Part shown: positions 5,001 through 61,929 of the stretch, one piece after another | Layout of the letters: every line of letters begins with the position of its first letter | Numbering within the stretch: position 1 is the first letter of the stretch | Assembly (NCBI GenBank): GCA_039621445.1 | Contig: CP154954.1 | Coordinates: 37,495,703-37,559,702, forward strand | DNA from: Euglena gracilis | Lineage: Eukaryota | Length of the DNA stretch: 64,000 nt | Direction: 5' to 3' | The notes under the pieces: generated by a model | Databases searched by the model: none | Told to the model about the DNA's origin: nothing | The model's input: the letters and a program-made list of their open reading frames with translations, nothing else | Translations under genes and position numbers: made by a program

Positions 5001-5089
5001 TATTACGCGATTTACATGAAAGATTTCGCGAAAATCGCGGTACCTCTATCGAGGCAACTCAAAAATCGCGCACCCGAAAATACCAAAGT

Positions 5090-7100: not shown

Positions 7101-7154
7101 AAAGCACTACCGTGCCTTTATTTCAAGCCCCGTTCCAAGTTACCCGAAACGGAT

Positions 7155-31385: not shown

Positions 31386-31484
31386 TCACTGTTTCTCCTT
31401 CTGCTTGTGGAAAGTGATATCCAATGACCTGCCATCTAATGGAAATCCATTGAGTGCCTCAAGTGAGGCCAAGCTTTGACTTAG
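31386..31484 (-). CDS. Two-RRM RNA-binding protein, last coding exon (5' boundary uncertain)
   Basis: LSQSLASLEALNGFPLDGRSLDITFHKQKEKQ* is RRM helix 2 and strand 4. Confidence 0.8.
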   Translation of the reverse strand, partial: LSQSLASLEALNGFPLDGRSLDITFHKQKEKQ

Positions 31485-31532
31485 AACAGCACACAAAATT
31501 AAACCGCCAAGCATAAAGAACTCATAGAATAC

Positions 31533-31555: not shown

Positions 31556-31857
31556 CAGGGGTTTTTTGAAGACCGGGGGGGGGAGGGGGGTCCCCCCCAC
31601 CCACCCACCCCCCTGGGGGGGCCCCCCGGGGGGGGGGAGGGGGTCCCGGGGGACCCACAAAAAATGGCCGAAAAATCGCGAAAAGTGCTAAAAATAGAAT
31701 TTTTTCGGCGCCTGCGGCGCCGAAAAGTATATCCCACCCCCCTCCGGGGGGACCCCCCCCTCCGGGGGGACCCCCCCCGGGGGGGGGGGGTCCGGCGGAC
31801 CCACCCACCCTACCCCCCCCCTCCCCCCCCGGGGGTCCAAACTTAAAAAAATCCCTG
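31556..31857. mobile_element. CAG-ended MITE with 8-bp TSD (same family as 22452)
   Basis: CAGGGGTTTTTT...AAAAAATCCCTG; perfect TSD CTCTGAAC (31548-31555, 31858-31865). Confidence 0.92.
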
Positions 31858-34033: not shown

Positions 34034-34286
34034 CAGGGGTTTTTTTAAGACCGGGGGGGGGGTCCCCCCACCCACCCACCCCCTGGGGGGGGGGGGGTCC
34101 CGGGGGACCCACAAAAAATGGCCGAAAAAACGCGAAAAGTGCTAAAAAAATAGCACTTTTTCAGCGCCTTCGGCGCCAAAAAGTATATCCCACCCCCCTC
34201 CGGGGGGACCCCCCCCGGGGGGGGGCTCGGCCGGACCCACCCACCCTACCCCCCCCCCCGGGGGTCCATGACTAAAAAAACCCCTG
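34034..34286. mobile_element. CAG-ended MITE with 8-bp TSD (same family)
   Basis: Perfect TSD TTCATGGG (34026-34033, 34287-34294); internal sequence matches the 22452 copy. Confidence 0.92.
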
Positions 34287-37983: not shown

Positions 37984-38215
37984 TACCACCGCCCTGCCAC
38001 CAGCACTATTTCTACAAACATAATACTAAAGATATAAACATTGGTGGTGGTGTTGTTGTTATTGTTGTTGATTATTCTTATTATAATTCACTTTGCGTTT
38101 ATTGTTTATTGATCATTTTGACATCAAATTGTTTCATTCGCCATGAGAAATTGATTTTGGGACCTTCAAAAAATTGATGATGAACTGCATTAAAGATACT
38201 TAGAGGGCTAGGCAC

Positions 38216-38336
38216 AAATCCGTAACCCTTGGATAAACCACGACTGAAATCCATTTCGACACGAATGGAGGCAATTGCTCCAAATTGAGCAAAAAGACGA
38301 TACATAGCAAGCTCATCCACATTGCTGGATAAAGAC
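38216..38336 (-). CDS. RRM protein exon 4 (RRM2, RNP1)
   Basis: SLSSNVDELAMYRLFAQFGAIASIRVEMDFSRGLSKGYGF; 3' boundary assumes the GT donor after TTT. Confidence 0.9.
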
Positions 38337-38683
38337 GGAACCAGGCTTCTTTTTAAGACCGTGTCCTGGTCCGTGAACCACAGCCCCTGGCACCCCCTTC
38401 TTTCAGGTAACCCTTGATCTTCGACACCGCATTGCAGCGTCGAAGAGTGGGCGGAGGTGAGGTGTGTCCGTTAAAAACAAAAAAAATGCTGACTCCGTGC
38501 AACTTTTGACTCACTTTTTACTCACCATTTCAGAGTCCTTTTACTATAAGCCATAGGTACGGCAGAAAGGTCCGAAAATCAGACCCTCCTGAATGTGTGC
38601 CAAAATCGGGTCGTTTCAGGAAGCGATTTCCTGCTTCATCACTCTCCTGATTTCACTGTTCTGAGTTAAATAGAAGCCCGAAC
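38337..38683 (-). other. Non-conventional (euglenid-type) intron, 347 nt, with MITE-derived ends
   Basis: Starts GTT-CGGGCTTCTATTTAA and ends TTAAAAAGAAGCCTG-GTTCC (no AG). Removal restores NLFVRSLSSN in frame. Confidence 0.85.
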
Positions 38684-38891
38684 CGAACAAATAAATTTGA
38701 GCCCTCCTCAGGGGCTTCGGCGCTCACCACAGGGATGTGAACTTGCTTGTTGCGCAATTGCATTGGAATTGTTGCATATGCAAAATCTTGATACGGATCC
38801 AAGGCTGGATGGGTGTAACTTCGCCCAAGTGGATGTTGTCCACCAAACACAGATGATGCCAGGGGATTATAGAACACCATGGGGGAGCAGG
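38684..38891 (-). CDS. RRM protein exon 3 (linker and RNP2 of RRM2)
   Basis: ...CSPMVFYNPLASSVFGG...EAPEEGSNLFVR; preceded by acceptor TGTTTTCCGCCAG; phases consistent with exons 2 and 4. Confidence 0.75.
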
Positions 38892-40931
38892 CTGGCGGAA
38901 AACACTGGCGATCCCTTCAACCCTACTCCACCCCCTCAGAAGCACGGACTTGAAAAAGAGGAAACTTAAAAGCAGAGCTGGTGTGAGGCAAAACAGTCTA
39001 CCCGTCAGAGGTTCTCAAGGACCCAGGGGGGGGGGGAGTCCCATGGGCCGGCTGAAAAAAAGGTGCTGTCTGGACCCCCCCCCTCCTTCGGAACCCCCTG
39101 AAGCAGGGCAGAACGGGCGCCTGGTGGGGGGGGTCCGACCCTCCCCCACCCGGGTGGGGGGAGGGTCAGACCCTCCCCACCACCATAGCGTTTTCACCAA
39201 TTTTGGGAAAACGGGGATTTTGGCCGGGGAAATTTTTTGAAAAATGAAAATGATTTTTTTTGATGGAAACCCACATTTTTTTCACAAAAAAACTCGAAAA
39301 TTTCAGGTTTAAAAATTTTACAAGAGAAGTGTGGGAAAAAAAAACGAAAGTCAAAAAAAAATTGGTCAAAAAATTTGGCACACTCGAATTTTACTGATTT
39401 TTTTTCTTGGAAATTTTTGGATTTTCAATGGCATTTTTTTTGCTTCAAAAACCTCTCAAAATCAAATTTTGAGAAAATGTTGAAATTTTGGAAGGTGTGA
39501 AAAAATGGGGGTTTGGGGGTTTTGTAACCTGCGACTGAGGGGTGGTCGTAAATGAGGGGTGGTTGAAAGACAAAGGGGGGGGGCAGGTGATGTGAGGGAT
39601 CAGAGAGAAAGGACCAAAACAATTTCAGTACCCAAGGCGGTTTTGAACCATTGGTCAAAATTTATCCCCAAAACAACAATTCTATCATAAATACTCAGTC
39701 GATGCCGGGGGGGGGGGGGGGTTGCAGTCCTGCTGGAAACTGGAAGCTGCTGGCAAGGGGTAATCAATACTTGGCGTTCATAAATGGGGGCCATTCTGGC
39801 TTCAGGAATCCCCTGGAAGGCATGTAGAATTGTGGGTTTGCGTCGCGAAAATTTCTCTTCTTTGAAATAAACAGCATCCCCACGAATGCAAGCGTTGAAA
39901 AAATGAATGCAAAAAAAAACTGATGTCCTTCCTGCGATCATTCAATTTGGCCAAACGACGCCCCCGTGACGCCTGCAACTGAGGGGGAAAAGGGGAAAAT
40001 GCCTGCAACTGAGGGGGCCCCCAGGATTTTCTTGAGGCCCGGGGGGTCCTGTGGGAGGGCTGCTGGAAGAAAGCTGCTGGCTGGGCCGGCTGGCTGGGAG
40101 CTGGACTCAGCAGGTATCCAAAAAGTGCCCAAAAACACCCAAATCCAGCTGGGTTGGCATTACTCAGCCAAATTTTGAGGTGAAGACCCAAAAAACCACC
40201 CAAAAATGAAATTCTGGGCCATTTTTGACCTGTTTCCAAAATTTTTGGTTGTTTGTGCCGAAATTATTTTCAATAAAGCCTGGTTTTGGAAGGAGGGGAC
40301 CCCTGCCTGCCCCAATGTGTTCGACCCACAATCTTGGAAGGCACATTTGAATGGGAGAAGACGGTGGATGGGCAGGGTATAAAATGAGATGGGGAGGAGG
40401 GGGTTCTGGAACCCTCCCCCAGAGGGGGTGAGTCAGCCCCCTCCCAGAGCAAAAAAAATTCAGCACAAAATGCCAGAAAATCTTTGGGCCTTGAAAAAAG
40501 CCCAAAGGTGAGTGGCTTGGGTGGACCAAAAAAAGGCAACAACCAAAACAGTATTTGATTGCTGTTATAATCGTGGTGAACAGCAGCATTATGGAGTCAA
40601 AAAGAATGCTTTTAAATGAATTTTCCCAAATACTCAACGGCAATGTTTTTGAAAAATTGTGATTGTTCAAAAGGAAAAAGTGCCAACCTTCGTATTGGCT
40701 TCTGTTTCATGGCTGGTGGCCTTGGTCAGTGGATGTTTCTTTTTAAAAAAAAATTGAACTGCAAGCAATCAGAAGGGGCACAGGGCAACCAGCAAGGCAA
40801 GACAACGATGAATGTGCGGGGGGGGGGGGGAAGGGAGAGCAGGAGGGAGATGAAAAAGGTGGGGCAGGATACAGAAGCATGTCCCCATTTTGAAAACCAT
40901 CAAATGAAATCTGACAAAGAGAAACACTCGC

Positions 40932-41090
40932 AAGATTGTGAGTTGTCGTGTGCCTGCTGCTTTCGCAGCTTGGATCGAGGATTGTCAGCTGGCTTCAATT
41001 CCAAAGGTTTATCATGCCCCTCAATGTATGTGCCATTCAATGCTTTGATGCAATTATCAGCATCCTCAGCCGCTGTGAATTCAATGAGTC
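40932..41090 (-). CDS. RRM protein exon 2 (second half of RRM1)
   Basis: (G)LIEFTAAEDADNCIKALNGTYIEGHDKPLELKPADNPRSKLRK...; the 3' end assumes a GC donor (T|GCGAGT), which keeps frame with exon 3. Confidence 0.85.
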
Positions 41091-41164
41091 CATATCACAC
41101 CATTGTCCCCAACATGGGTGGATGGAGTGGAGGTAGACTCCAAAATGTCTTCCTATGCGAACTA

Positions 41165-42878
41165 AACCCCCCCAAATAATACCCCCCCCCCCGGGGGATT
41201 ATTTGATTTTCGCCCGAAGTCCCGGCCCGAGGGGGGGGGCTCCCGGATCTGGCCTGGGGGGGGGGGTTGTGAGGATCGACCATGGTCGGCCCACGGTTGC
41301 CCTCAGTCGCCCTCGGTCGTGGGGGGTCGACGGAGAAGGTTGTGGGGGTCGACCGAGGGGGTCGACCCCCACCCCACAGACGGACCCCCCCTTTTTTGCA
41401 AGGTTGGTCGCCCTCGGTCGACCCACACAGCACCGTCCATGCTGACCGTCCATGTTCGTGGGCCCCAAGACAAACAAAAATTTTTCAATCCATTTTGGGA
41501 GGCAAATCCCCTTTGTTGCCCAACTGTTTGAGGGCCCCAAATCCCTTATGTTACCCACCCGTTTTCCGGGGCAAATCCCTTTTTGTTGCTCAACTGTCCG
41601 AGGGCCCCAAAATAACAAAATCCCTTATGTTAGCCACCTGATGGGTGGGTAACACAAGGGGATTTGTTATTTTGGGGCCCTCAGACAGTTGAGCAACAAA
41701 GGGGATTTGCCCCCCAAAACTTGAGGGTAACACAAGGGGATTTGTTATTTCGGGGCCCTCGAACAGTTGAGCAATAAAGGGTATTTGCCCCCCAAAATGG
41801 GTGGGTAACACAAGGGATTTGCTCCTCAAAACGGGTGGGGAACACAGGGGCAAATTCCCCTTGTTGCTCAACTGTTCAAGGGCCCCAAAATAACAAAATC
41901 CCTTGTGTTACCCACCATACATCTCTTCAAGGACCCCGGGGGGGTGCTGGGCTAGGGCTAGGCTGGCTAGAAATTTGGGCTGGCTAGCCCGCCCCCCCCC
42001 CGGGGGGGGGGGGGGGGGCTGGGCCCCGGCTGGACCCGAACCGGGGCGAGCTGGACTGAAATCGGAAAAATGCCCAAAAATGACCTGCAGAACACAGTTT
42101 TGAAAAAATGATGCATCTGAAACCCCCCAAAATGCCCCAAACGCCCCCCAAACCCCATTTTTGGCCACTTTTGAACACAGTTTTTCAAAAAATTTCGGCG
42201 CTTTGCGGCGAAAAATTTTGGGCTGGACCCCAAAAAAAGGGGCTGGCTAGCTGCTGGGCTAGCAGCACCCCGCCCCGGGGGGGGTGCTGCTGCGGCTGGG
42301 CTGGGCCCAAATCGGGGCTGGCTGCAGCCGCCCCCCCCGGGGGGGGTTCGCAAAACCTTAGAGAGATGTATGTTACCCACCCCCTTTGTGGGGGTCGACC
42401 GAGGGCGACCGACCTTGGAAAGGGGGGGGGGGTCCGGCTGTGGGGTGGGGGTCGACCATGGTCGCCCTCGGTCGACCCCCACAACCGCAGCTCGGTCGCC
42501 CTCGGTCCCCCCCACGACCGAGGCGACTGTGGGCCGACCATGGTCGACCCCCACAACCCCCCCAGGCCAAATCTACCCCCCCGAGGGGGGGTATTATTTG
42601 GGAGGGGTATTATTTCCCAAAAATTTTCAAAATTTTTTCAAGTCCCCCAAAACCCAAAATAGCACCCAAAACCCCCTTTGGGGTCATTTTTTGTCCTTTC
42701 TCAAAAAATTTAGCATTTTTGGAGGGCAGATGATCGCAATTTGTTGTCAGAGATTGTGATTTTTACCCAAATTTTCAGTCAAATTCCGGGTCGTCGGCCC
42801 AAGATTTGGGGGGGGGGGTATTAATTCGGTGGCCGAAGTCGGACCCCGAGGGGGGGGGTATTATTTGGGGGGAGGGTT
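41165..42878. mobile_element. TA-flanked MITE expanded by nested insertions
   Basis: TA|AACCCCCCCAAATAATACC ... GGTATTATTTGGGGGGAGGGTT|TA; internal GGTCGACC-rich and CAACTGTT/AACAGTTG-rich repeats. Confidence 0.65.
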
Positions 42879-45800
42879 TAATCTACCCCCCCCAAATACA
42901 ATCCTGGGATTCTGGGGTCTGATTTTTGGGAAGAGTGCACTTTTTGGATTTTTTTTGTTGAAAATTTTGGATTACAGCTTTGGCCTGATGCCAGCAATTT
43001 GGCCCGCAGTGTGCCAGAATTCTGGCCACTTCCACCATGAATAAATGAAACCAACACATCCCCTCGCAATTGGAAAAAAGGGGGGGAAATGCCGAAAATT
43101 TTGTTTAGTCTTGGCCTTTCCATCAAATTTTGGAGGTCTCATGATATTGTTTGGATCCGGGTTGTGGGGGGGGTCACGGGGATGAAAAACCCCATCCTAT
43201 TAACCATTTTTTTTTGGAAAAAATGCGATTGTTTCGTTGTTTTGATTTTTGTGAATATTGTTTTTTGGTGCTTTTAAGATTCAGTTTTCGAGTTTTGGGA
43301 ATTTTCAGCAGGGGCTCTAGGCGGTAGACTCCTCCACCCCCACCCGAGCCCAGATAACAAAATCCCTTCTATGTTGGCAACATACTCGGGGGCTAAGTCG
43401 TTTTTGTGGCTCACTTTGGCATAGGCGGGGGGGGGGGCTCTGCCCCCCCCGCACCCCCCCTCAAATAACAAAATCCCTTCTATGTTGGCAATATACTTGG
43501 AGGGCTAAGTCCTTTTTGTGCAAATTTTGACTTATATATTGAAAATCCAACGGGGAGAAGTGTTCTTTTCCCAAAAATGGCCCAAAATGGACATTTTGCC
43601 CCCAGTTTTTTGCTTATTCACCCCCGATTGGGGGTTCTGGAGCCATTTGGGTGGGTTTTGACTGGTTTTGGGGTGATTTGGACAAAAGTTTTTTCTCAGG
43701 GGGGGGGCTTAAAAGTCGGCGAGACTGGCCCGTAACTACATTAGAGTGGGTGACTAGTCGGCCTACCACCCAGGACCCCCCCCCCTGTCTCGCCGACTAG
43801 CTGCCGACCAGGCCTAGTCGGCCGACCAATTGGGTGGTCGGCCGACCACCCAGGACCCCCCCCCAGTCTACCGTTTGCCACTGCAGTTTGGACAAACTTT
43901 TGGTCGAAAAACACAATTTTTTTTGCCACGGGATGGTAACTGGCAGTTTTTTGGGGGGGAAAATGTTTGCAGTTGATTTTGTCGGACGGGGTGGGGTCCA
44001 GTCCGAACCCCCCCCCCACAGAGTCCGGCCAGCCTGCTGGACCCGGCGGGCGCCTCCACACAGAATAAGAGAGTCTTCGTATTTAGGCCGGCGGGGCGTC
44101 TTTGAAGAGGTATTATTTTCTATTGAAAGCTCCCAGACAATTGATGTTCTATAATCATGTTCCATTAAATGAAATATGTTCTATCATTTTCTTTCTGTTG
44201 AGCTCATCATGTCGGCCGTCCCTCTTCATGGAGTCCAACATATATCACAGCTGGTGGCAGACAATATCTATACAAAAATCGACTGCCACTAATGGCGCCG
44301 GGCAGCCTGGCGCCTTTGACACCTTGGGCTGCCCGGCGCCCCTGCTAAAATTGTTACTTAGTGCAGTCGATTGTTCTAAAACCTATTTCGCAGGGCCCGC
44401 ACGCCTGTCTTGAGCAACCTTTAACAATTAGAAACCTATTTCAAAAATTCCCCAAAATTGGCCAAATGGAAATTGTTGCACAAAATACCCCAATATCTGG
44501 CCAAATACCCCCCAAAAACTGCTCAGATGTGATTGACACGTGTCTACTAACCATTTTGAACACTTTTGGGCATTTCTGATTTTCGATCCCCTAGACGCCA
44601 TCTTCCCGCCCGAACCGGCGTTCTGGACGCCGGTTCGGCGCAAAAATTTCTGCGCCGAACCGGCGTCCAGAACGCCGGTTCGGGCGTGAAGCCAGAGCCC
44701 CAATACGAATACCATGAAGCACAGCTGGAATCTAAGGCCATCTGCTGAAAGCCCTTGAGAACTGCTTTCGATCTGCGGGCCAGGAGGGGGAGGGTGGGGG
44801 GGACACCCCCCCCCCCCCACCTAAACAGTTGCGCGGTCTGGGTGATCGAAAATTTTTGACCCCCCAAAACGACCAAAGGGCCAAAACGACCAAACGTGTT
44901 CAGCCAGGGGGCCCCCGAAGGGGGCCCCCTGAAGACGTTTTCAGGCTGAAATCTGGGCTCAGCCACAACTTGTTTGAAAACGTGCCTAACCACAGATGCC
45001 TTAATGGAAAACGTGTCATTGCCACAGATGCCCTCATTGAAAACGTGTCACCCCCCCCTTTTTCCGCAGCCTTCCCACTATGGCTAAACGCACGGCTAAC
45101 TTTGTGCCTTTTGCCACCTCCCCCTAGGACGGAACTGTTGCTGGCTGCTCTCGCGGTATACCAGCAAGATGCCAAGAAGCCGAAGGTTGACCCCCTTCAT
45201 GGCACCTTGCTGGCACAGGGCAACACAAAGAAAAAGTCCGGCTCCGTGGGAGCAGAGCTTGCTGCTGTTGCCAACTGTTTGGAGTTCGCCAAACTGTGTC
45301 AACATCGGCAAGCCTCTTATCCTGAGCTGCATGCTTTCTTTGTTGCTTGGACGGGATGGGAGCATGCTTGTGCTTACCAACCGGGGGGGGAGGGGGGGGT
45401 GGGTGCTATAGGGTGCCTGCCCCTAGCAGGCACACCCCCCCCGGGGGGGGATAGGGGTCCGGGCCGGACCCAGAAAATTTTCATTGAAAATGGCCCTTTC
45501 CCGGCCCCCGGCGCCTTTGGCGCCGGGGTCGGAGGGGGGTGCCTGCTAGGGGCAGGCACCCCCCAAAACCCTACCCCCCCGGGGGGGGGGGGCGGATCGG
45601 GTGCTATGGGGTGCCTGCCCCTAGCACCCCCCCCCGTGGGGTAGGCACCCGACTAAGCGCAAGCCTGGAGGGGAGCTGGAACCCAGCCTGTTGTTCGATG
45701 AGGCGAGCGTCATTGAACAATGTGTGGCTCAACGTGAGCAGCAGTCGGGAACTTTGTTCGTTTCAGGGAATCGTTCGGCAACCTCTTTTCTTCTTTGCCA

Positions 45801-45976
45801 TTCCCAAAAATCCAAATTGTGTGGAGCTGAAAAAAGTTGTGTGTGACGCCTGGGGTTTGGCATATCATTTTCATTGCCAAGATTTGCGGCGGCCACCAAA
45901 GTATGGCTCTTTTTTGTGTAAAGTGTGACGTGTTTCGTGATGTCCGCCACTCCGTGTCATTGTGCTCCAAGGCAAC

Positions 45977-46213
45977 CAGGCTTCTTTTTAAGACCCCCGG
46001 GGGGGTCCCCCCCCCACCCACCCAGGGTGGCGCGGGACCCCCCCGGGGGGGGGGGGGCGGGACCCCCCCCCCAAAATCGGGCCCGTAAAAGGCAATTTCC
46101 AAAAATTTTCGGCGCTTCGCGCCGAAAAGGTATACCCAGCGCCTCCGGCGCGGGACCCACCCACCCACCCCCCCTCCCCCGGGGGGGGGTCTGCTGACTT
46201 AAAAAGAAGCCTG
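45977..46213. mobile_element. Young CAG-ended MITE with 8-bp TSD; TIR matches the ends of intron 38337-38683
   Basis: Perfect 16-bp TIR CAGGCTTCTTTTTAAG/CTTAAAAAGAAGCCTG; perfect TSD AAGGCAAC (45969-45976, 46214-46221). Confidence 0.95.
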
Positions 46214-46339
46214 AAGGCAACCTAGCCTTCTGTTGTGTTGTAGAGTGCCCCCGACCCGCCTCACTCGTTGAGGACCACCCGACCTCGCAACCACCCGCTG
46301 ATTTTTCATGACAGCGTTTTTTGCTTTTTACTCAGGGTT

Positions 46340-46492
46340 GCCCCAGATGCCCTAATGGAAAACGTGCCTGAACACAGATGCCTTAATCGAAAACGTGTCA
46401 TTGCCACAGATGCCCTCATTGAAAACGTGCCTAACCACAGATGCCTTAATTGAAAACGTGTCATTGCCACAGATGCCCTCATTGAAAACGTG
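46340..46492. repeat. Short tandem repeat of GAAAACGTG...CACAGATGCC units (also at 44976-45048)
   Basis: Alternating ~31-32-bp subunits, directly visible. Confidence 0.8.
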
Positions 46493-48640
46493 TTCATGAC
46501 CACGAATTTCAGGGCAGGCATTTGGCGGGCTTAACACGTTTTTAACACTGTGTCCAGAACGCCGGTTCGGGCGTGAAGCTGTGTTTCAGAACGCTGGTTT
46601 GGGCTGCCGCCCGAACCGGCGTTCTGGACACAGTTTTCGTATCAGAAACCCATACAGTGGTTTTTTTGTTGTTTTCACGGCGCCCCTCTGAAAACCATTT
46701 AAACCGGCGTTTGAGACGCCGGGTTCAGGACAGAACCGGCGTCCCCCCCCCCCATGGGTTTTCCGGACGCCGGACAGAACCGGCGTCCGCCACCCCTTTT
46801 TTGTAGTATATACAAACGGGCGCCTGTCTTGAAAACCGTTCGACCTTTTGTGAAATCTCTTATTTGCCTCATCATCCTTCTTTAAAGCTGTGAAGTGTGC
46901 AATGTTCGGTGGCACTGTGTGTGGATCTCCGACATCCACCCAGCTTTGGGTGGATGTGCGAGGGCTGTCGCAGCGCTATGTAGTTGTTCAGTTTCCGTTG
47001 TGATCCTGGTTGTGATTGTGCCCTGGTGATTTTTGTCTTTTGTCTGTACGTTTCTGTCGTTAACCCTATTTCAGCTCTTGTTGAGCTCTGGGGCACCAGT
47101 CCCCACACATTCTTTTGTGCCTTCAATTGTGGGTTCACTAGGGTGGTGACATTCGTGAAAAGTGGTCGGAAAGAAAAGTAAAAGATCGTGAAATCTCATG
47201 AAATTTCAGGGGCCGGAAATTTCAGTCACGACCCTAGGATTCACAGATCCTTTTGTGGCTTCAATCAGTTACCAGCTGCCTACATCCCACGGGCGCCTGT
47301 CTTGAAAACCGTTTCATACAAACGGGCGCTTGGTCTTGCAAAGCCGCCCAGAACGCCGCCCGCCACTGCGGGCCGCCGGCCTGCCTGCCTCCTCAATATG
47401 CTCCCATCCCACGTGGAAAGTGGAAAGTGCCAATAGTTAGAAGCCAGCACCTTTCTTCCAGCTGGGAGTCATGGTGGTGCAAACGCAAATTGGTGCCAAA
47501 TGTTTTTTTGGTATTTATCATGTTTCCAGCTAGCCTGGCACTTCCCGTTTTTAAGACCTGGATCGGAGAAAGCAGTTCTTTGCTTGATGGTGAAGCAACA
47601 AAAAACATATTGGCAGGAAATCTGTTGTTTGGGCGACATCCTGTCATGGAAGCTCCACTCAGGGGTTTTTTTTTTAGCACCTTTTCATATTTTTCGGTGC
47701 CTTCAGCACCGAAAAATATGTTCCCACCAGCCCTTACACCCACCGCCCCCCCCCCCCCGGGGGGGGAGGGGTCCAAGGGACCCACCCACCCTACCCCCCT
47801 GGGGGGGGTAGGGGGGCAAGACTAATTTTTAGCATTTTTGGACATTTTCGGGCAAAAGTGGGTCCCCCCGGGGGGGGGGACACCCCAGGGGGGGGTGGAT
47901 GCCGACCCCCTCCCCCCCCGGTCTTAAAAAATCCCTGGTTTCAGTGCCAAATTTTCTTTTTGTTGCAAATTTTCTGCCATTTTGCCACTTTCTGCCCACT
48001 TGAACGTTTTTGTGAAAATCAGGGGGGGTGATCATGATGATGATGATGGCGACGACAAATATTATTCTTATTATTGTTATTATCATTATTGTTATTCTCA
48101 AAAAATGAGGGAATTTTTTGTTGAACCCCGGAAAGGTTTGGAGCAGGATTCTTTAAGTGAACGTCTTTTTTGGCCCCCCAAAAGCCCCCCCCCCGGACCT
48201 CCTCTTCCTTCCCTTTTTGGGGGTGGGTGCAGGGCTACCCCCTCCCTCTTAAAAAAAGAACTCTTCCCTTCTTTCCGGCTTTATCCCAAAGTGCCTTGCA
48301 TTCACCTCCCCCCCCCCCGTCTCACAGTTCCGTGGCTGCTGGTGGTGGCTGGTCCCCCTCCTCACCGCCATCGGCGCCGCCAGCTGGACACGCAGGGCGG
48401 CGCTGTGAAAATGGTCAGTTCGGGGGTGGCCAGGCGATTTCCCTTCGGGAATGCACCCCCCAAACTGGGCGATGAGGATTTTCTCACAAAAGAAATCCAC
48501 CCCAACCCTGGTTGGTGAACATGTGGTGACCCCAAACGCATTTCTCAGTGCAAAGTGGCAAATCTTCTCTGCCGTGTTTGTCCTCCCTGACAGGTAGTTG
48601 CAGATCCCTAACAGACCCATTTTGGGGTTTTGGCCAGAAG

Positions 48641-48806
48641 CAGGGGTTTTTTTTAATCTTGGACCCCCCGGGGAGGGGGTAGGTGGCCCCCAGGGGAATA
48701 TTTTTGAAAAGGTGCTATTTTCAGCATTTTTGCGATTTTTAGCCATTTTTGGGGAAAAGTGAGTGGGTCCCCTGGGACCTCCCCGGTCTTTTAAAAAAAA
48801 CCCCTG
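48641..48806. mobile_element. CAG-ended MITE with 8-bp TSD
   Basis: CAGGGGTTTTTTTTAA/TTAAAAAAAACCCCTG; perfect TSD GCCAGAAG. Confidence 0.92.
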
Positions 48807-51800
48807 GCCAGAAGTGTCCACCGAGGAATGGCGCGCCCCTGCCGCAGATCTCGCCCATCGACAGCAGCCTGGCCAACACGTTGGCGTGGGCAGCGGTGGC
48901 CAGCACCTACGGCTGGCTGTGGGTGGACTACCTCCGCCCACGGCTGCTGGGTGCCGCACCGCTGCCCATGCTCCGCGGTTGGGGGGGCTTTTGCCCTGGG
49001 TGTATGGTCTTGAAAACCGTTTTTTTTTTGGGAACGGTTTCTGCTAAAACCGGTCAATGTCAGTCGATTTTCAAGACAGGTGTCGGGTGAGATTTAAACA
49101 CATATGGACTTTTCGTGAACTCTGATACAAAAACTGTGTCCAGAACGCCGGTTCGGGGGCCCCGAGCGGATTTCCGGTGGTGGTCGCTGTGGTGGTCGGC
49201 CCGACCTTATCGACCTGTGGTGGTCGGGCCGACCTGGTCGGCCCGACCACCATTTTTTTGCACCACCCCCCCCCCCCCTTCTGGAAATTTAAGCCGGCGT
49301 TTGAGACGCCGGGTTCAGGACAGAACCGGCGTCCCCCCCCACGGGCTTCCGGACGCCGGTTCTGTACTAAAACCAGGCGTTAGGAACGCCGGCTTTGTCC
49401 AAAGCCCGGCGTCCGATTTTCATTCCTAAAAATGTCACCAAAAGTGTCCAAAAGTGGCCCTGAGGTGCTGGTATGAGTGTTTCAACCATCAAGGACAATG
49501 ATTTTTGCCATCTGGGGACCACTAGGGTGGATATCCAAATTTGGTGAAAATTGGCCCAGATTTGGAAATAGAGTACCGTGCAGCGTGGAAAGATCTGATG
49601 AGCACCGCTGGTCGTCTGTTGAAAAGAGCTTTCGATCGAGGGGTAACTTGGTACCCTAACGTTGCACGCAGCCCGAGATACGCTCGCGATCGTCGGATCG
49701 GCCAGAATCTGAGTCGAAATTTGTCGCAATTTTCAGTGATTTTTGGTTTAAGATGCTTAATAAACCTTACAGAAACGTTTTTCCTCTTCGAATCAACGAC
49801 CTGAGGGCCTTGGGGGGGGCACCAGAGTTGTGAAATTAGGATTCCCCACTGACAGAAAATAAGAGCTCCAGGCGACCTGGCTGAATTTGGTGGTGATCGC
49901 CAGTCGTCTGATGAAAAGAGCTTTCGATCGAGGGGTGAGTTTGTACCAGGACGATCAACACAGCCAGAAATACCCTCGCGATCGCCGGAATTTGGTGAAG
50001 TGCAAAGTGGTGTGACATTGCAGATCAGTGGTCGGAGGTTGGTCCTGGGAGTGTCCTTTGGCCGAAGGTTGGGTACGCCGGTTCTGTCCTGAGCCCGGCG
50101 TCTCTAAAACGCCGGGCTTTGGACAGAACCGGCGTCCGACACCTCTTTTTTGTAGTAAAGCCCCCCCCCCTGAAATTTTTTTTGTCCAAATCACCCCAAA
50201 ACCAGTCAAAACCCACTTAAATGGCTCCAGAACCCCCCAATCGGGGGTGAATATGCAAAAACTTGGGGGGGAAATGCCCATTTTGGGCCACTTTTGGCAA
50301 AAGAACACCACTCCCCATCGGATTTTCAATATAATTGCAAAATTTTGCACAAAAAGGATTTAGCCCTCCAAGTATGTTGCCAACATAGAGGGGATTTTGT
50401 TATTTGAGGGGGGGGTGCGGGGGGGCGGAGCCCCCCCTGCCTATGAAAAAGTGAGCCACAAAAACAACTTCTCCCCCGAGCATGTTGCCAACACAGAAGG
50501 GATTATTTGACGTTCGGATGGGGGTGGAGGGAGGAGTTTCCTGCCTCTCGTGATGCAGAATGCTTGCATTTCTAAAGGATTTTCATGTAATCCCTGTTTC
50601 ATCATTGTTTTTTTTTACCCCTCCGGGCCCCCATCAGGGGTCCACCGACCCCCCACCGACCAAAGATTTCCATCTGGGGGTGTTTATTTAGGCGTAAGAC
50701 ACTTATTTGGACCCATCCGGACCATTTCCGGGTGATTTGGGCCCGCCACAGACCATGTTTATAACCACCGACCAGCCACCGACTTGTTTGCATGGGATTT
50801 TCTTCAGGGGTACTTAAATGTCGGCGGTACTGACCCGTTAGTACATTAGAGTAGGTAGGCAGACTACCCAATACCCCCCCCACCCCGTCCTCCCCACCCC
50901 ACCTCGCCGACCAGCTACCGACCATTAGTCGGCCGACTCCCCCCCCACCCCCCAGTCTACTGCCATGCGCCACGAAGGCCTCCTGGTCGAAGGCCGCACA
51001 GCGGCCGAGGGCCGCCGCAACGGCCGAAGGCCGCTGCAATTCAGACCAACCAGTCGGCCAACTACCCAATACCCCGCCACCAAGTCTCGCCAACTAGCTA
51101 CCGACCGTTAGTCGACCGACTACCCCCCCCTGCCAATCTACCGCCATGCGCCCCGAAGGCCGCCTGGCCGAAGGCCGTGCATCGGCCGAAGGCCGAAGCC
51201 CGCGCAGCGGCCGAAGGCCGCTGCAATTCAGAACTTGAAAAGTTGATGACGTTATTTAAAGGAGTAGGGTTAGGGTCAAGTTTCCATCCCTAACTGTCCC
51301 ATCCCATCCCCTCAACGTCGTTAAATTGGTGTCTGCAGGGGACCCAGCGAACCCAAAGAGGCGCCCAACTAGGGTTAAAAACATTGGGGGACCCGAGCGA
51401 GGCGCCGAAGGCGCCGAGCGAGGGTCCCCCAATGTGTATTAACCCTAGTTGGGCGCCTCTTTGGGGTAGCTGGTCCCCTGCAGGCACCACTTTTTCACGC
51501 ATCAGTCACCGACCCTTCAGCTGGTCGATCGACCCTTCAACTGTTTGGTGGCAGGCTGGAAAGGGGGGCTGGTCGGCCGACTAGTCGGCTGACTAGCCAA
51601 TTGGTTGGCCAACCGACGGCGCCAATTGGTCGGTTGGCCTAGTCGGCAGCTAGTCGGTGAGACAGGGGGGGGGGGCCAGTTGGCCGACTAGTCGGCGAAC
51701 TACCCACTCTGTGCTACTGAGTCAACTGCCGACTTTTAAACCCCCCCTGAAAGAAAACTTCGGATCGGGTGGAGGGGGGAGTTTTTCTGCCTCTCGTGAG

Positions 51801-52341
51801 AGTCATGGCCAGTTTCCCCCTACGACCCCCAGGACCCACCGGGGGGCGGTACCCACTTTAGAATAACCTGAACTTGTGCTGCAAAATTTTTGCCAAAAAA
51901 ATGCGGGACCCACCAAGGACCCCCCCCCCCAGCACCCCCCCAGGACACCCCCCAGCACCCTCCGAAGTCTGACTGGGGGGGACCTGGCCAGGACCCCCCC
52001 AGGTCCCCCCAGGACCCCCCCAGGACATGGTCACTGGCCATAAATGCATTTCCATCACATAAGTGCATAAGGACATCAGAACTGGCCATAAGTGCATTTC
52101 CGGGTGATTTGGGGCCTTCACAGACCATTTTTATGCCCACCGACCAGCCACCGACCACCCACCGACCAGGGGGGGGGGGGCTTAAAAATGCAAAAAAGGG
52201 GGGTAGTGCAAAAAAATGGTGGTCGGCCCGACCACCACAGGTCGGTCGACCACCACCACAGGTCGGGCCGACCATGGTCGGCCCGACCACCACAGCGACC
52301 ACCACCGGAAATCTGCACGGAGCCAATAGGAGCCCGGTTCG

Positions 52342-55300
52342 GGCGTTCTGGACACAGTTGTTGAAACCGTGGATTAGGGGCTCTGGCTTCACGCCCGAAC
52401 CGGCGTTCAAGGAATGCAGGCCAATTTCGGCCTAAATACCCATTTTTCGAACATTTTGGAGCATTTTTGGCTCCTTTGGGCGCATGGCCATGTCGATGGG
52501 CCGATTGAAGTTTTCACTGGTCTGGTGCCATATCACCCATCGATCGAAAGCTCTTCTCAAGGGCTTTTGGTAGATGGCCACAGGATTCAGCCATTATGCA
52601 CAGCGCTTATTTTCAGCGATCGTGCATTCCAAAATTTGACATCTTAATTTGTGAAATCCCACACCTCAGGTGCCATACAGCATATCAATTGAAAGCTCTC
52701 GCCAAGACCTTTCATTTGGACCCTCAGAACTCAGCTACACTGCAGAGCACTCTGAAAATCGGCGATCGCATTTTCCGACCCTGTTTGCAAAGTCGAAATT
52801 CCTATGTTTCACCAGCCATGTTGCCCATCGATCGAAAGCTCTTCTCAGGGGCTTTCAGCAGATGGCCTTGGATTCCAGCCGTGGTGTATGGTGTTCTACT
52901 TCAAAAACTCCCCAAATTTGGCCAAATGGAAATTGTTGCACAAAATACCCCAATATCTGGCCAAATACGGTACTTGTCTGTTATCGCACGACGCACGTTA
53001 TCGCACGACGCCCTTGGAACGGCCAGAATGCTTTCCCTTGGGGTCTGTTTCAGCCGTTTTGGGTGGTTTTGTGGTTATTTTGTGAAGGGAGGCGAGGCCC
53101 TGCCGTACCCCTTGGCACACCACACAAGGGGAAACCCAAAGGCGGCAGACAGGCAGGGGGATAGAAAGATAAAGCGTGCCGACCATTCGGCCCCAAAAGG
53201 GATTTGCCATCCTGAACACATGGAGAGAAACAGGGCAATTTGCCCAAATTTGGCCAAATTCAAAAAAGGCAAAATCTTCGCAATTACAACTCCCAACCCT
53301 AACCCCATTCCTCCCAATAACCCAATACAGCCACCGGAAGAGGAAAGGAAGGCGTCGTGCGATAACCAAAAGGGGGGGGTATGTCGTGCGATAACAGACA
53401 AGTACCCCAAATACCCCCCAAAAACTGCTCAGATGTGATTACCACGTGTCTACTAACCATTTTGAACACTTTTTGGCACTTTTTATTTTCGATCCCCTGG
53501 ACGCCATCTTCCCGCCCGAACCGGCGTTCTGGACGCCGGTTCGGCGCAAAAATTTCTGCGCCGAACCGGCGTCCAGAACGCCGGTTCGGGCGTGAAGCCA
53601 GAGCCCCAATACACGGTTTCAAGGTTATGCCCATATGCTCGCAGTTGTCGAAACGATGGATTAAGGGTCATGCCCGAACCTGCGTTCAAGGAATCATGAT
53701 TGAAAATTTTCACCTCAGACGCCATTTCACTCCCCCCCCAGCACAAAAATTTGAATAAAACATTGTCGTTCAAAGTATTCCCATTGCTCCAGAACGCCGG
53801 TTTGGGCGAACGCCAAGTTGGGCTGACGCTTGAACCGGTGTTCTGAGGAATGGCTTTCTGTGGCCCCAAATTTTTTACTTGCGCTTTTGCGCCGGAAATT
53901 TTTTTGCACAGGGGGTCCGACCCCCCCCCCCCCCCCCGGGGTCCAGACCCCCCACTCACAATACACTTAGCGTCTGAAATGCTTGCCCACAACCTGTCAA
54001 GGTTTTGGCCTGGAGCCCTCAAAAAAGTTTGCCCAAAGGTCTCAAATTTTTTTTGCACTGCGCCCCAAAATTCTTGCACTTTGTTCCAAAAAAATTTGCA
54101 CTTTGCCATTTAAACCGGCGTTTGAGACGCCGGGTTCAGGACAGAACCAGCGTCCCCCCCACGGGTTTTCCGGACGCCGGTTCTGTACTAAAACCCGGCG
54201 TTAGGAACGCCGGCTTTGTCCAAAGCCCGGCGTCCGGTTTTCATTCCTAAAAATGTCATCAAAAGTGCCCAAAAGTGACCCTAAGGTGCTGGTATGACTG
54301 CCATCTGAGGACCAGTGGGGTGGATATCCAAATTTGGTGAAAATTGGCCCAGATTTGGAAATAGAGTACCGTGCGGCGTGGAAAGATCTGATGAGCACCG
54401 CTGGTCATCTGTTGAAAAGAGCTTTCGATCGAGGGGTAACTTGGCACCCTAACGTTGCACACAGCCCGAGATACGCTCGCGATCGTCGGACCAGCCAGAA
54501 TCTGAGTCGAAATTTGTGGTAATTTTCAGTGATTTTTGGTTTAAGATGCTGAATAAACCTTACAGACACGTTTTTTCTCTTGAAACCGTGTATTGGGGCT
54601 CTGGCTTCACGCCCGAACCGGCGTTCCAGAACGCCGGTTCGGCGCAGAAAATTTTGCGCCGAACCGGCGTTCTGGAACGCCGGTTCGGGCGGGAAGATGG
54701 CGTCCAGGGGACCGAACATAAAAAGTGCCAAAAAATGTTCAAAATGCTTAGCAGACATGTGGCAATCACATCTGAGCAGTTTTTGGGGGGTAATTGGCCA
54801 TATATTGGGGTATTTTGTGCAACAATTTCCATTTGGCCAAATTTAGGGAATTTTTGAAATAGAATACCATGCAGCACGGCTGAAATCTAAGGCCATCTGC
54901 TGAAAGTCCTTGAGAAGAGCTTTCGATCGATGGGCAACATGGCTGGTGAAACATCGGAATTTCGACTTTGCAAACAGGGTCGGAAAATGCGATCGCCGAT
55001 TTTCAGAGTGCTCTGCAGTGTAGCTGAGTTCTGAGGGTCCAAATGAAAGGTCTTGGCGAGAGCTTTCAATTGATATGCTGTATGGCACCTGAGGTGTGGG
55101 ATTTCACAAATTAAGATGTCAAATTTTGGAATGCACGATCGCTGAAAATAAGCGCTGTGCATAATGGCTGAATCCTGTGGCCATCTACCAAAAGCCCTTG
55201 AGAAGAGCTTTCGATCGATGGGTGATATGGCACCAGACCAGTGAAAACTTCAATCGGCCCATCGACATGGCCATGCGCCCAAAGGAGCCAAAAATGCTCC

Positions 55301-55416
55301 AAAATGTTCGAAAAATGGGTATTTAGGCCGAAATTGGCCTGCATTCCTTGAACGCCGGTTCGAGCGTGAAGCCAGAGCCCCTAATCCACGGTTTCAACAA
55401 CTGTGTCCAGAACGCC
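52342..55416. repeat. Large inverted repeat (arms 52342-53623 and 54579-55416, ~950-bp spacer)
   Basis: ORFs 52414-52647 (+) and 55111-55344 (-) translate identically; the left arm carries an extra MITE. Confidence 0.9.
52969..53406. mobile_element. GGTAC-ended MITE with 8-bp TSD (Merlin-like by ends and TSD)
   Basis: TIR GGTACTTGTCTGTTATCGCACGAC; perfect TSD CCAAATAC. Confidence 0.9.
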
Positions 55417-55996
55417 GGTTCGGACCACGGAACTGTGTTCCGTGGTCCGAACCGGCGTTCTGGACACAGTTTTCGTATCACAAATCGACCACCTGAGGGG
55501 TCCGGGGGGTACCAGAGTTATGAAATTAGGATTTCCCAGTGACAGAAAATAAGAGCTCCAGGCGGCGTGGCTGAATTTGGTGGTGATCGCCAGTCGTCTG
55601 ATGAAAAGAGCTTTCAATCGAGGGGTGAGTTTGTACCAGGACGATCAACACAGCCAGAAATACCCTCGCGTGTCAGTAGAATTTCAAGACAGGCGTCGGG
55701 CCCAGAAAATAGGTTTTAAAGTATGGTTTGGGTGTTTCATAACGAGAAATTTCCCTTTTGTTTTTTTTTGATGTTTTTTTTAGTGTTTTTTTTTAAAAAA
55801 AGCACGTTGTTTTGTTTTTTTTTTAAAAAAACAAAAAAAATGCCCACTATGGTTCAGGACAGAACCGGCGTCCCCGCCCTTCGGTCAAAGGACACTCCCA
55901 GGACCAATCCCCGTCCACTTATCTGCAAAGTCACGCCACTTTGCATTTCACCAAATTCCGGCGATCATTAACGGATTTCAGCCTGAAATTGTTTGT

Positions 55997-56943
55997 GTCA
56001 GTCGATTTCCATTCAGGCGCCCGTTTATGTCAGTCGATTTCCATTCAGGCGCCCGTTTATGTCAGTCAATTTCCATTCAGGCGCCCGTTTATGTCGGTCG
56101 ATTTCCATTCCATTGAAATCTGTTGCTGGTCAGATTGGGAATTTTTAGTGACTTTTTGGACATTTTGGATCTCCCTTTTTTGAAGACATTTTTGGTCCTA
56201 TGGGGTTGTGGAGGCGTTATGGACCAGAAAAAAACCAAATTTTGTGGTCAGGTGATCACAGCTGGCTGAACTTTGGATGGAACAGACGGAAGGACGGAGC
56301 TGAAGATTATCATTTTCTGGGACTTCAGACAAAGCATTCGGCAAATTTGCCCTGAACCAGTTGTTATCACTGGTCATCTGAAAGAAAAGCTTTTGGGTGA
56401 GGAGTGATTTGGCCACGTTAAACCTATTTTCTGGGCTCGACGCCTGTATTGCAATTCTATTCTATTGCAAGGCTGTGTTCCTGGCAACATGGCTTTGGTC
56501 AAAATCTGTGTTTCTAAAAAAATGCAGAGTCTGCGTTTTAGGCACAGTTCTTGAGATAGAGCTTGTTCTTGTCAAAATGGAAGAAAAAATGCATTCCGAA
56601 AAAATGCAGAGTCTGCGTTTAAGACACAGTTCTTGATGTAGAGATTGTTTCTTTCAAAATGGAAGAAAAGCTGCATTCCGAAAAAGGGAACAACAGGTTG
56701 GGTCGACATTAACGGATTTCAGGCTGAAACCTAAAATGTCCCGAAACGGAACAAAAGGGCATTCAAAAAAAGGACACAAAAGGTCGGTCGATTTCCAAGA
56801 CATCGGAAACCGTTTATGTCAGTCGATTTCCATTCAGGCGCCCGTTAGTGTCGGTCGATTTCCATTCAGGCGCCCGTTAGTGTCGGTCGATTTCTATTCA
56901 GGCGCCCGTTAGTGTCGGTCGATTTCCATTCAGGCGCCCGTTA
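55997..56943. repeat. Two arrays of a 31-bp repeat GTC(A/G)GTCGATTTCCATTCAGGCGCCCGTT.. (55997-56110, 56818-56943); related copies at 30227-30275 and 30768-30830
   Basis: Head-to-tail units with no spacers; probably subterminal repeats of a ~1-kb element. Confidence 0.88.
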
Positions 56944-58152
56944 ATGGGCCAAAAACCACTTTTTTGACCATATTTCCGTCCAGGCGGTTCGGTCGAATGA
57001 ATATCAAGACAGGCGTCGGGCCCAGACAAAATAGGTTTTAGAAAAATCGACCGACACTAACAGATTCAGCAGGGGCGCCGGGCGGCTCGCTTCGCTCGCT
57101 CGCGCCCGGCGACCATACTGAATCTGTTAGTGTCGGTCGATTTTTGTATAGAATCCTACTCAGTTCAAAAAGTGCCAAAAATGGTCGAAAACATCCAAAA
57201 AAGCAGAAAAAATGCAATTTTATTACTTTTTCCGTTTTTTATGGGAGGTAGTCTTTGGCAAAACTGAACCAAAAGTTACCAAAAATGACCGAAAATACGC
57301 ATTCAAAATTTTTTCTTTACAAAACCTAGTGGGCGTTTTTTTTGTTTTTTTTAAAAAAACATTGTTTGAAATAAAAAAAAACAAAAAAAACAAAGAAAAA
57401 AAAAACAGGCATGACCACTATGTCCTGAACCCGGCGTCTCTAAAACGCCGCTTTAAACAAGGGGTGGCGGACGCCGGTTCTGTCCAAAACCCGGCGTTCC
57501 GGACGCCGGTTCCGTCCGGAATGCCGGGTTTTGGACAGAACCGGCGTCCGCCACCCCTTTCTTGTAGTATACTTTTGTCCAAAAAAAAAGGCTTACACAA
57601 TAGGTACACTCCGGTTGAAGTTTAAAAAGGCAATTGTGCAAAACACCCAATCCAAGGGCAAAAAAATTCGGAACGAATGCTTTTGGAATGTGCAACCACT
57701 TTTGAGGAAAAGTGCGAACAAATTGGTGGTATGTGCAAACATTTTTGAGATTAAGTGCAAGAAAATTGACCGGAAGTGTAAAAGCATGCGGAGCGAAGTG
57801 CAAAAAAATTCGGTTGTTAGGTGTAAAAAATATTTTCTTAAAAAGGTATGTTTTTTTAAAAAAAAACAAAAACAAACCGTCAACCTTGGCACTCGGCCGA
57901 CTACCCACCACCCACTCCCCTCCCAGTCGACTGTCTGGCACCCGTGCCGACCCCTCCCCCCTGTCCCTCCAATATGAAACACCCCCTCGGGAGCCAAAAT
58001 CCTGAGGATGTTGCAGCTATGCCATGGTGTGGGGAATCGGTCTCAGCCAAAGCCCCCCCCCCCCGCCTTGTACGGCAAGGGGGTGCATGGGTGCATGTGG
58101 GGGGGGGGGAGGTGATGGGGGGGGGGGAATGGACAACTGCAATGGTCTGGTC

Positions 58153-58298
58153 CAAATCCTTTGCTTTGCCCCGTCACTGTATTCCGCCAAACAGTTAAAG
58201 ACGATACCACACCGTAAATTTCAACAAGGTTTCGCAAATCTGCTTCATGATAAGACAATGGAAGGTTCCGAATGAAGACGTTCTTGTTCATAACCGCT
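58153..58298 (-). CDS. RRM protein exon 1 (ATG at 58291; first half of RRM1)
   Basis: MNKNVFIRNLPLSYHEADLRNLVEIYGVVSSLTVWRNTVTGQSKGF; preceded by the acceptor TTCTTGCATTTTCCTTTGCAG (cis or SL trans-splice). Confidence 0.9.
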
Positions 58299-58379
58299 CT
58301 GCAAAGGAAAATGCAAGAATAGTTTTTGGTGTATTTTTGGGGGGTTTACACGTGCGATTTTGTTGATTGAATAAACGAC

Positions 58380-59126: not shown

Positions 59127-59431
59127 GGTACTTGTCTGTTAGTCGATCCACGGCAGTGCATCAAGTCTGTTAGTCGATCCACACCCTATTCAACCCTATT
59201 CAATAGGAATGACCACTTTCAGTGCAAAACAGGATGTGTGACGTCATAATTTGACCATGTGACGTCATACACAAGCAAAATGATGACCGTATGACGTCAT
59301 ACTTGAGTGTGTGACCCGGGGATGACGTCATAAGGTCCAAATCAGCTGCATATTTGACGTCATCAAAGCATAGGGGAAGAAAGGGTGTGGATCGAGTCGT
59401 TTTGCCGTGGATCGACTAACAGACAAGTACC
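59127..59431. mobile_element. GGTAC-ended MITE with five TGACGTCA palindromes
   Basis: 29-bp perfect TIR GGTACTTGTCTGTTAGTCGATCCACGGCA; perfect TSD ATTCGGGC. Nested in an inverted relative of the 26640-26957 repeat. Confidence 0.92.
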
Positions 59432-61348: not shown

Positions 61349-61929
61349 GAAGACGACGTTGAAATGTTAACAGCCTCTCAATGTTCTCAACTTGGCCCAG
61401 CCCATGGCTCCTGGTTTCCGATGAATGCGCTGCCGGTTTTCCCCCAACTCCCTTTCGCCCTGCCGACTGCTTCCGGAGTGCCCGGCCTTGATGCTGGTGG
61501 CCAATGGCTACAGGACCACCAAAATGCTTCATTCCTCCCCTTGATGGACAACATCCACCCTGTGACTTTACCCTCACCACAACCACCAACGCCAGCACAC
61601 CTGCCCATTCAGTCAACTATTGCTTCTCCGTCAACGACGACCGCTCAACCATTCCAACGATCCTGTGCCATATCTCCTGTCGTTGCCGGAGTTAGTAACC
61701 CTGGTCAGCCCGCTTCACACTCCCAAGGGGACGTGGCCATGTTACCCAACTCACAGGACAGCAGGCAACGCCGAGTATCTTGCTCTGTTCCCCCGGGTAC
61801 GTTCCCAGATGACGGGGCAACCTTGCATGGCTCGGTTGCATGCTCTCCACCCATTTGAAGAGCCCCCTGGTTTTGGAACGTGGGACCCGTCTCACCAATT
61901 GCAATTTGCGAGAGATGCAGAAACCTTGC

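Follow-up and report, generated by a model that had tools for sequence, protein, structure and literature searches.

Introduction

The nonconventional introns of euglenids follow a splice code that was defined genetically as 5'-N3CDG-/-CH'GN5-6|R (Nomura et al., 2025, PMC12501133). CA at +4 and +5 and TG at -7 and -6 are their most conserved positions (Milanowski et al., 2014, PMC3935182), and a 2024 review in Mob DNA (PMC11282704) names CAG at +4 to +6, CTG at -8 to -6, pairing ends and border repeats resembling target-site duplications, as well as circular products of such introns known from the literature. A direct repeat that makes the exon junction slidable was reported for 84.4% of all introns (PMC12501133). 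Here, we analysed a 64,000-nt stretch of Euglena gracilis DNA (GenBank assembly GCA_039621445.1, contig CP154954.1, positions 37,495,703 to 37,559,702 of the forward strand; hereafter the window, numbered from its first letter), which contains on its minus strand a gene for a putative RNA recognition motif (RRM) protein whose first RRM (RRM1) is divided by 17,062 nt. In our judgement, the interval 58152-41091 is probably, if by no means certainly, a real, spliced, single nonconventional intron within the Gly47 codon of a two-RRM protein gene. Both sequence and homology lend good support to the view that this intron derives from a transposon.

Host gene and homology-defined junction

Exons 1 and 2 (Table 1) represent, as judged by homology, the two halves of RRM1 in one RRM-protein gene on the minus strand. 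The coding part of exon 1 translates as MNKNVFIRNLPLSYHEADLRNLVEIYGVVSSLTVWRNTVTGQSKGFG (MNKNVFIRNL...QSKGF-G) and ends in AAA GGA TTT G at 58153, exon 2 translates as GLIEFTAAEDADN, and their predicted spliced sequence is AAAGGATTTGGACTCATTGAA. An in-frame TGA sits two codons 5' of GLIEF, after which the frame reads (Y)GLIEFTAAEDADNCIKALNGTYIEGHDKPLELKPADNPRSK; exon 2 therefore has no further upstream extension, which fixes the acceptor. Aligned to the 70 positions of the Pfam profile RRM_1, exon 1 covers positions 1-42 (E 1.1e-8) and exon 2 positions 42-67 (E 4.8e-4). An initial reading of the letters alone (the sequence-only reading) had placed the split of RNP1 between KGF(G) and (G)LIEF at 58153/41090, a proposal borne out by the sequence, by this profile coverage and by the protein P0003 (238 aa, two RRM domains, source contig of at most 1,250 nt), which spans RRM_1 positions 1-67 uninterrupted and crosses the exon 1/exon 2 junction without a gap as QSKGFGLVQFSSPEEANECILLLNNFKIDGHDKPLEVKLADRPRSK (QSKGFGLVQF).

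P0003 was the sole relative of exon 1 among the longer proteins of a 5.8-billion-protein collection (70% identity); no relative of exon 2 was found among longer proteins and none of exon 1 among proteins of similar length. When searched against the window by tblastn, residues 1-47 of P0003 matched exon 1 with 70% identity (E 8e-17), and the full protein gave 13 matches at E <=10. Five of these are collinear on the minus strand (58291-58151, 41094-40945, 38844-38683, 38341-38213 and 31475-31398), with E-values from 2e-17 to 6e-7, identities of 46-81% and open frames. The others comprise one match with E 0.016, in which RRM2 of P0003 cross-matches exon 2, and seven with E >=0.47. A match inside the intron (56114-56061, E 9.5) was dismissed as chance after comparison with the gene's own exons, and a search with these exons as DNA and as protein revealed no extra exon copies in the window. 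The concern that the two halves might come from different genes, which the sequence-only reading had itself raised, thus met with five collinear single-copy matches instead. Each half occurs once, the two follow in order, and they complement each other down to the residue, which constitutes good homology evidence for the predicted junction, and together with the TGA-bounded acceptor these properties argue for one gene with a homology-defined junction.

A pyrimidine tract followed by AG lies 7 nt 5' of the exon 1 ATG (58292-58320, minus strand). This arrangement resembles a spliced-leader acceptor and would identify exon 1 as the predicted first exon.

Ends of the proposed intron

For the minus strand, the sequence-only reading was right in its coordinates and in both repeats, the inverted one (9/10) and the direct one (7/8). 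The sole mismatch of the inverted repeat is a G opposite G in the third pair, and the flanking 8-mers ATTTGGAC and ATATGGAC abut its arms directly; the right repeat, within which exon 2 begins with the G at 41090, is followed by TCATT. No inverted repeat was found beyond these 10 nt, as local alignment of the 120-nt ends yielded only C-runs. The junction slides over TGGAC and thus has six equivalent registers, with the ends TG..TA, GG..AT, GA..TG, AC..GG, CC..GA and CA..AC, and the GT-AG, GC-AG and AT-AC ends of spliceosomal introns are absent from all six. As a correction to the sequence-only reading, 58153/41090 is the register picked by the 3+5 rule among six that would yield the same mRNA.

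The 5' end consists of a 3-nt spacer, GAC, followed by CAG (58152-58147), in agreement with CDG at +4 to +6 of the published code. The sequence ACCATTG that follows this motif pairs with CAATGGT (7/7), and the terminal 16 and 18 nt fold together to -11.2 kcal/mol. The first downstream exon base is a purine, G at 41090, and the older consensus is present with CA at +4 and +5 and TG at -7 and -6. This combination of a 3-nt spacer with CAG, TG with a 5-nt spacer and a purine is already published, and the 17-kb interval is therefore best assigned, from its end geometry, to a known class, the euglenid nonconventional introns, of which it would be an unusually large member. The description of an intron defined only by its repeats is not supported in any new sense, as the geometry matches the published description of that class.

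Several estimates were made of how often such ends arise by chance. The motif CA[G/C]ACCATTG occurs exactly twice on both strands of the 64 kb, at the two intron ends, with 0.50 occurrences expected. Matches to the partner sequence with at most one mismatch number 10 compared with 5.27 expected over 128,000 strand-positions, corresponding to 4-8e-5 per position. The chance of the inverted repeat is ~1e-3 for the ~12 registers permitted by homology and ~0.05 when all 364 in-frame donor/acceptor combinations are counted. The combination of inverted and direct repeats is far beyond chance, because a direct repeat of 7/8 that immediately abuts the inverted repeat (~4e-4, binomial) multiplies the odds of the latter. 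Furthermore, a pair scan gave a best value of 9/11 for the 17-kb intron, whereas the 6,128 and 2,792 combinations scanned for the gene's introns 2 and 4 reached 8/11.

Table 1. Features of the RRM gene, the 17-kb interval and its nested elements (positions in the window)
Feature	Position	Strand	Details
Exon 1, coding part	58153..58291	-	ATG at 58291 through base 1 of the Gly47 codon; RNP2 and first half of RNP1
Proposed nonconventional intron	41091..58152, 17,062 nt	-	3+5 register; five other registers yield identical mRNA
Left 8-base direct repeat ATTTGGAC	58150..58157	-	last three bases GAC (58152-58150) form the 5' spacer
5' inverted-repeat arm CAGACCATTG	58140..58149	-	CAG at intron +4 to +6
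3' inverted-repeat arm CAATGGTGTG	41096..41105	-	GTG at -8 to -6
Right 8-base direct repeat ATATGGAC	41088..41095	-	first five bases ATATG (41095-41091) form the 3' spacer
Exon 2	40945..41090, exon 3' limit approximate	-	second half of RNP1 and remaining RRM1, LIEFTAAEDADNCIKALNGTYIEGHDKPLELKPAD; tblastn E 8e-13
Further homology-supported exons	~38916-38684, 38336-38213, ~31478-31389 (with stop codon)	-	P0003 matches
Intron 3	38337..38683, 347 nt	-	strict code GTT-CGG GCTTCTATTT ... AAAAAGAAGC CTG-GTTCC|G
Nested element	41916..42372, 457 bp		inverted ends, perfect 8-bp duplication TTACCCAC
Nested CAG...CTG MITE	45977..46213, 237 bp		perfect 8-bp duplication AAGGCAAC
Nested CAG...CTG MITE	48641..48806, 166 bp		perfect 8-bp duplication GCCAGAAG; splice code matched on the transcribed strand
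Nested MITE of a second family	52969..53406, 438 bp		perfect 8-bp duplication CCAAATAC
Large inverted duplication	52342..55416		arms 52342-52968 and 54790-55416, 97.8% identical over 627 bp
MITE, miniature inverted-repeat transposable element.

Interior of the proposed intron

The interior of the interval is rich in repeats and holds no detectable gene. More than one copy within the window exists for 54.7% of its length, and three or more copies for 15%. The many self-pairing interior elements anticipated from sequence inspection are present, with 143 inverted pairs of at least 16 nt within 1.2 kb, among them two CAG...CTG MITEs whose 8-bp duplications are perfect, and several perfect hairpins with 45-nt arms. 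Identities of the internal duplications range from 76 to 98% overall. None of the seven long interior open reading frames (ORFs) matched a protein family in Pfam (0/7), and the 150 longest (>=66 aa) of the 184 interior ORFs of at least 60 aa matched only the exon-1 ORF and two DUFs, with E-values (0.0014 and 0.0044) at chance level for 150 queries.

A segment of ~0.7 kb within the intron (56055-57061) duplicates 30221-30952 on the same strand with 76-90% identity. The source of this duplicate adjoins the gene's last exon on its downstream side.

Four clean nested insertions (Table 1) together account for 1,298 of the 17,062 nt (7.6%). The second-family MITE at 52969-53406 is accompanied by its empty site, a single uninterrupted 8-mer at 54790-54797 in the inverted paralogous copy, which provides a filled/empty pair. 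Inflation of the intron through nested insertions is thus shown in principle. The proposal that the intron had been inflated in this manner is upheld by the perfect 8-bp duplications of the four insertions, but it covers only this small fraction, and most of the 17 kb consists of repeats and duplications that it leaves unexplained.

Mobile elements in the window

A scan for CAG...CTG pairs with terminal complementarity of at least 10/12 returned 906 pairs, five of which have 8/8 flanks (22452-22734, 31556-31857, 34034-34286, 45977-46213 and 48641-48806) and one 7/8 flanks (23769-26957, 3,189 bp). Outside the 17-kb intron, the copies 22452-22734, 31556-31857 and 34034-34286 belong to a family with the ends CAGGGGTTTTTTTAAG...CTTAAAAAAACCCCTG, which are shared by 23769-26957; the copy 31556-31857 falls within intron 4 of the RRM gene. 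All 64 trinucleotides were compared as termini at a complementarity of at least 11/12 and a distance of at most 3 kb. Five of 78 pairs with CAG termini have repeats of at least 7/8, compared with 0/77 for GAC and 0/78 for CGA, which are equally frequent; G/C homopolymer termini exceeded CAG and represent low-complexity runs. A second MITE family with the ends GGTACTTGTCTG...CAGACAAGTACC comprises copies of 438 bp (52969-53406) and 305 bp (59127-59431), both with perfect 8-bp duplications. Many of the 8/8 'duplications' in a general scan were palindromic 8-mers inside long inverted repeats and not target duplications, and duplications were counted only where the flanks are non-palindromic. Elements with 8-bp duplications are demonstrably mobile in the window, because five CAG...CTG copies have 8/8 flanks and one filled/empty site pair exists.

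The 17-kb intron shows the hAT-like or MITE-like arrangement of an 8-bp duplication flush with inverted repeats (7/8 beside 9/10). No other copy of either 19-nt intron end was found in the 64-kb window at up to three mismatches. A transposase domain was detected neither in the 150 interior ORFs nor in the ten longest of the window's other ORFs, a search that intron-split genes would escape. Ty3/gypsy-type retrotransposon ORFs encoding reverse transcriptase, RNase H, integrase and a chromodomain are located at 2339-7343 (+), and a second reverse-transcriptase ORF at 61566-63428 (+). A 1,438-aa ORF (8951-13264) has no Pfam family match.

Other introns of the gene

Intron 3 was the top in-frame pair in a strict-code scan, and its predicted junction, NLFVR|SLSS, is identical to P0003. 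Eight-base flanks of this intron, GTTCGGTT and GTTCCGTC, agree at six positions. Its 3' end is identical to the end of the nested MITE 45977-46213 over 19/19 nt (blastn E 2.6e-4) and its 5' end matches at 13/16, and the interiors of the two are unrelated. That this gene also has a strict-code intron lends support to a system of euglenid type at the locus. A second, independent case of the same 3+5 geometry had been claimed for the 17-kb interval; intron 3 does show the 3+5 code, and is probably what had been counted as the first case.

At the probable exon 2/exon 3 borders (40940-40950 and 38890-38900, minus strand), GAGTGTTT and CAGTGTTT form a direct repeat of 7/8 and bring the two frames together. 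Neither an adjoining inverted repeat nor a GT-AG register was seen at these intron 2 borders, and neither rule fits them. Within intron 4, no code-compliant pair was found. RRM2 may be split like RRM1, directly after KG[FY]G (38213-38225 and 31478-31505, minus strand); the open frame 5' of the last exon reads GLILCAVLSQSLASLEALNG, and its 19-residue spacing equals that in RRM1 and P0003. The same gene apparently has another long intron of ~6.7 kb between 38213 and ~31500. Long introns may therefore be under-reported rather than rare.

Evaluation of the single-intron interpretation and its alternatives

Several observations weigh against a single spliced intron. The 3' end reads GTG-ATATG (41098-41091) in place of CH'G with a 5-6-nt spacer, and no pair complying with the strict code was found for this intron. 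In a knock-in assay with a short test intron (EgGSL2), each single substitution in CAG or CTG abolished splicing (PMC12501133), and these mutagenesis data would count against removal of an intron whose 3' triplet is GTG. With 17,062 nt the interval is ~2.9x the largest nonconventional intron among 28,337 catalogued E. gracilis introns, a set derived from a fragmented draft assembly, in which the two nonconventional groups reach 4,682 and 5,931 nt, GT-AG introns reach 8,197 nt and means are near 520 nt (Gao et al., 2024, PMC11170887). Intron-length statistics from chromosome-level assemblies were not found in the passages covered. The end duplex (-15.7 kcal/mol) is matched or beaten by 9.0% of 5,000 random 25-mer pairs from the window, and the 5' end finds an equally good or better partner in 1,002 of 17,007 internal 25-mers. 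Three internal sites on the minus strand (55243-55234, 52130-52121 and 44143-44134) differ from the partner sequence by a single mismatch and retain a canonical CTG, which makes them potential decoy acceptors. Introns 2 and 4 yielded no convincing pair in strict and relaxed scans, their best score of 8/11 being at chance level. The Pfam score of exon 2 (20.4 bits) is slightly below the cut-off of 20.7, and an identical protein from the same organism was not found with either exon, which is weak evidence. Thermodynamic pairing alone cannot select the true 3' end; the non-distinctive duplex and the internal CTG sites imply that recognition needs more than the stem, or that internal helices or ordered removal help.

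Some of these points would also be expected if the gene or allele were disrupted, the 17 kb being an unspliced composite transposon insertion between exons that merely look intact. Such a disruption would be compatible with the loss of a CTG found essential by mutagenesis (PMC12501133), with a length beyond every catalogued nonconventional intron (PMC11170887), with the non-distinctive end pairing and internal decoy sites, and with the lack of a junction-spanning protein from the same organism in searches with either exon. We consider it unlikely: all five homology-detected exons retain open frames at 46-81% identity to P0003, and the insertion looks old, with one mismatch in each repeat type, four later nested insertions and duplications of 76-98% identity. 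Moreover, of the annotated nonconventional introns, 38.8% are spliced although they do not follow the strict code (PMC12501133), and the older CA/TG consensus is retained here. Stepwise removal, in which nested nonconventional introns or recursive cuts would come first and the outer ends last, would accord with direct long-range pairing not being thermodynamically favoured. Read on the transcribed strand, the nested MITE at 48641-48806 conforms to the splice code, and the 143 local inverted pairs together with the long inverted duplications could fold away kilobases. As the recognisable nested elements amount to only 1,298 nt and just one of the two CAG...CTG MITEs is code-compliant (on the transcribed strand, the base after that at 45977-46213 is a pyrimidine), such removal would shrink the intron little; in addition, the searched passages of the intron-order study make no mention of nested or stepwise removal. 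This route therefore appears improbable as well, ranking below disruption of the gene.

An assembly artefact, in which neighbouring exons were separated by a misjoined or repeat-inflated interior, would be conceivable in a region that is hard to assemble owing to its high proportion of repeated sequence, near-identical inverted copies and 57 runs of G or C of at least 8 nt. The window contains no N bases, the nested elements have clean duplications, and matched inverted and direct repeats at both ends would not be expected from a random misjoin, which renders this explanation very improbable. Least probable of all is that exons 1 and 2 belong to different transcripts, with exon 1 as a stray fragment of a 5' end and the start of the downstream gene elsewhere. 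The large gap of 17 kb speaks for this explanation, but the RRM_1 coverage of the two exons meets at one residue, the P0003 matches are single-copy and collinear, and a stop codon lies two codons 5' of exon 2. The pyrimidine tract and AG preceding the ATG would likewise be expected if exon 1 came first in the transcript and a spliced leader were joined to it.

Proposed origin and removal

For the favoured interpretation as a single nonconventional intron, we propose that the intron began as the insertion, with duplication of an 8-bp target site, of a DNA transposon whose terminal inverted repeats start with CAG, and that it later grew by nested insertions and duplications. Based on the published code, CAGACCATTG would pair with CAATGGTGTG, and the nonconventional machinery would cut 3 nt 5' of CAG and 5 nt 3' of (G)TG. 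The spacers of 3 and 5 nt sum to 8, the length of the duplication, and such a cut would take out the element together with exactly one duplicate. This sum would account for the exact restoration of ...KGFG|LIEF... in the mRNA. Judging from published cases, the intron would leave as a circle.

If the junction were confirmed by cDNA, the known size range of nonconventional introns would become about three times as large. Such a confirmation would, in addition, provide a natural case of CAG-GTG splicing, which short-intron mutagenesis would not predict, and would bear on how ends 17 kb apart are found. More generally, and only tentatively, nonconventional splicing may be the exact excision, at the RNA level, of CAG...CTG transposons with 8-bp duplications (hAT-like), the spacers being fixed because 3+5 equals the duplication length; we regard this as possible rather than probable. 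If true, an exonic insertion of such an element would vanish from the mRNA and leave no scar, and the window would display three stages, namely free MITEs, the young code-compliant intron 3 and the old 17-kb intron. The latter would have lost the C of CTG and grown ~50-fold and must still be removed, which would imply that neither great length nor a mismatch in the third pair stops the machinery. The importance of the locus lies less in the intron than in its surroundings: MITEs with 8-bp duplications, a code-compliant intron with the same terminal repeat and the 3+5 sum make the MITE-origin hypothesis of nonconventional introns directly testable genome-wide.

Comparison with known systems

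hAT elements and their MITEs generate 8-bp duplications and have short inverted repeats that often start with CAG, and both features are shared by the elements considered here. The maize Ds element, which belongs to this group, is reportedly spliced from pre-mRNA, as Giroux et al. are said to have described in 1994, and its removal from RNA similarly spares the host gene. Ds leaves via the spliceosome at cryptic sites, whereas removal at the present locus would be exact and of the non-spliceosomal euglenid type.

The 17-kb intron resembles other euglenid nonconventional introns in its lack of GT-AG ends, the 3-nt spacer with CAG, the adjacent pairing, the 5-nt spacer, the purine acceptor and the direct repeat. 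It differs from them in the 3' GTG instead of CTG or CCG, in its length and in the nest of later insertions in its interior. Terminal inverted repeats and borders resembling target-site duplications match the hypothesis that these introns originated from MITEs (Milanowski et al., 2014, PMC3935182; Guminska et al., 2018, PMC6221363; PMC11282704). Beyond that hypothesis, MITEs with 8-bp duplications in the window neighbour the code-compliant intron 3 that shares their terminal repeat. The 3+5=8 arithmetic, the 8-bp figure and an assignment to a transposon superfamily were found neither in the passages of these publications that were covered nor by literature searches.

Introners of Micromonas, dinoflagellates and others are likewise transposons turned introns, in which the duplication supplies part of the splice geometry and excision restores the frame (PMC11282704). 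They are spliceosomal, with GT/GC-AG ends and duplications of 3-5 nt (PMC11282704), whereas the 17-kb intron of E. gracilis has non-spliceosomal ends and an 8-nt duplication.

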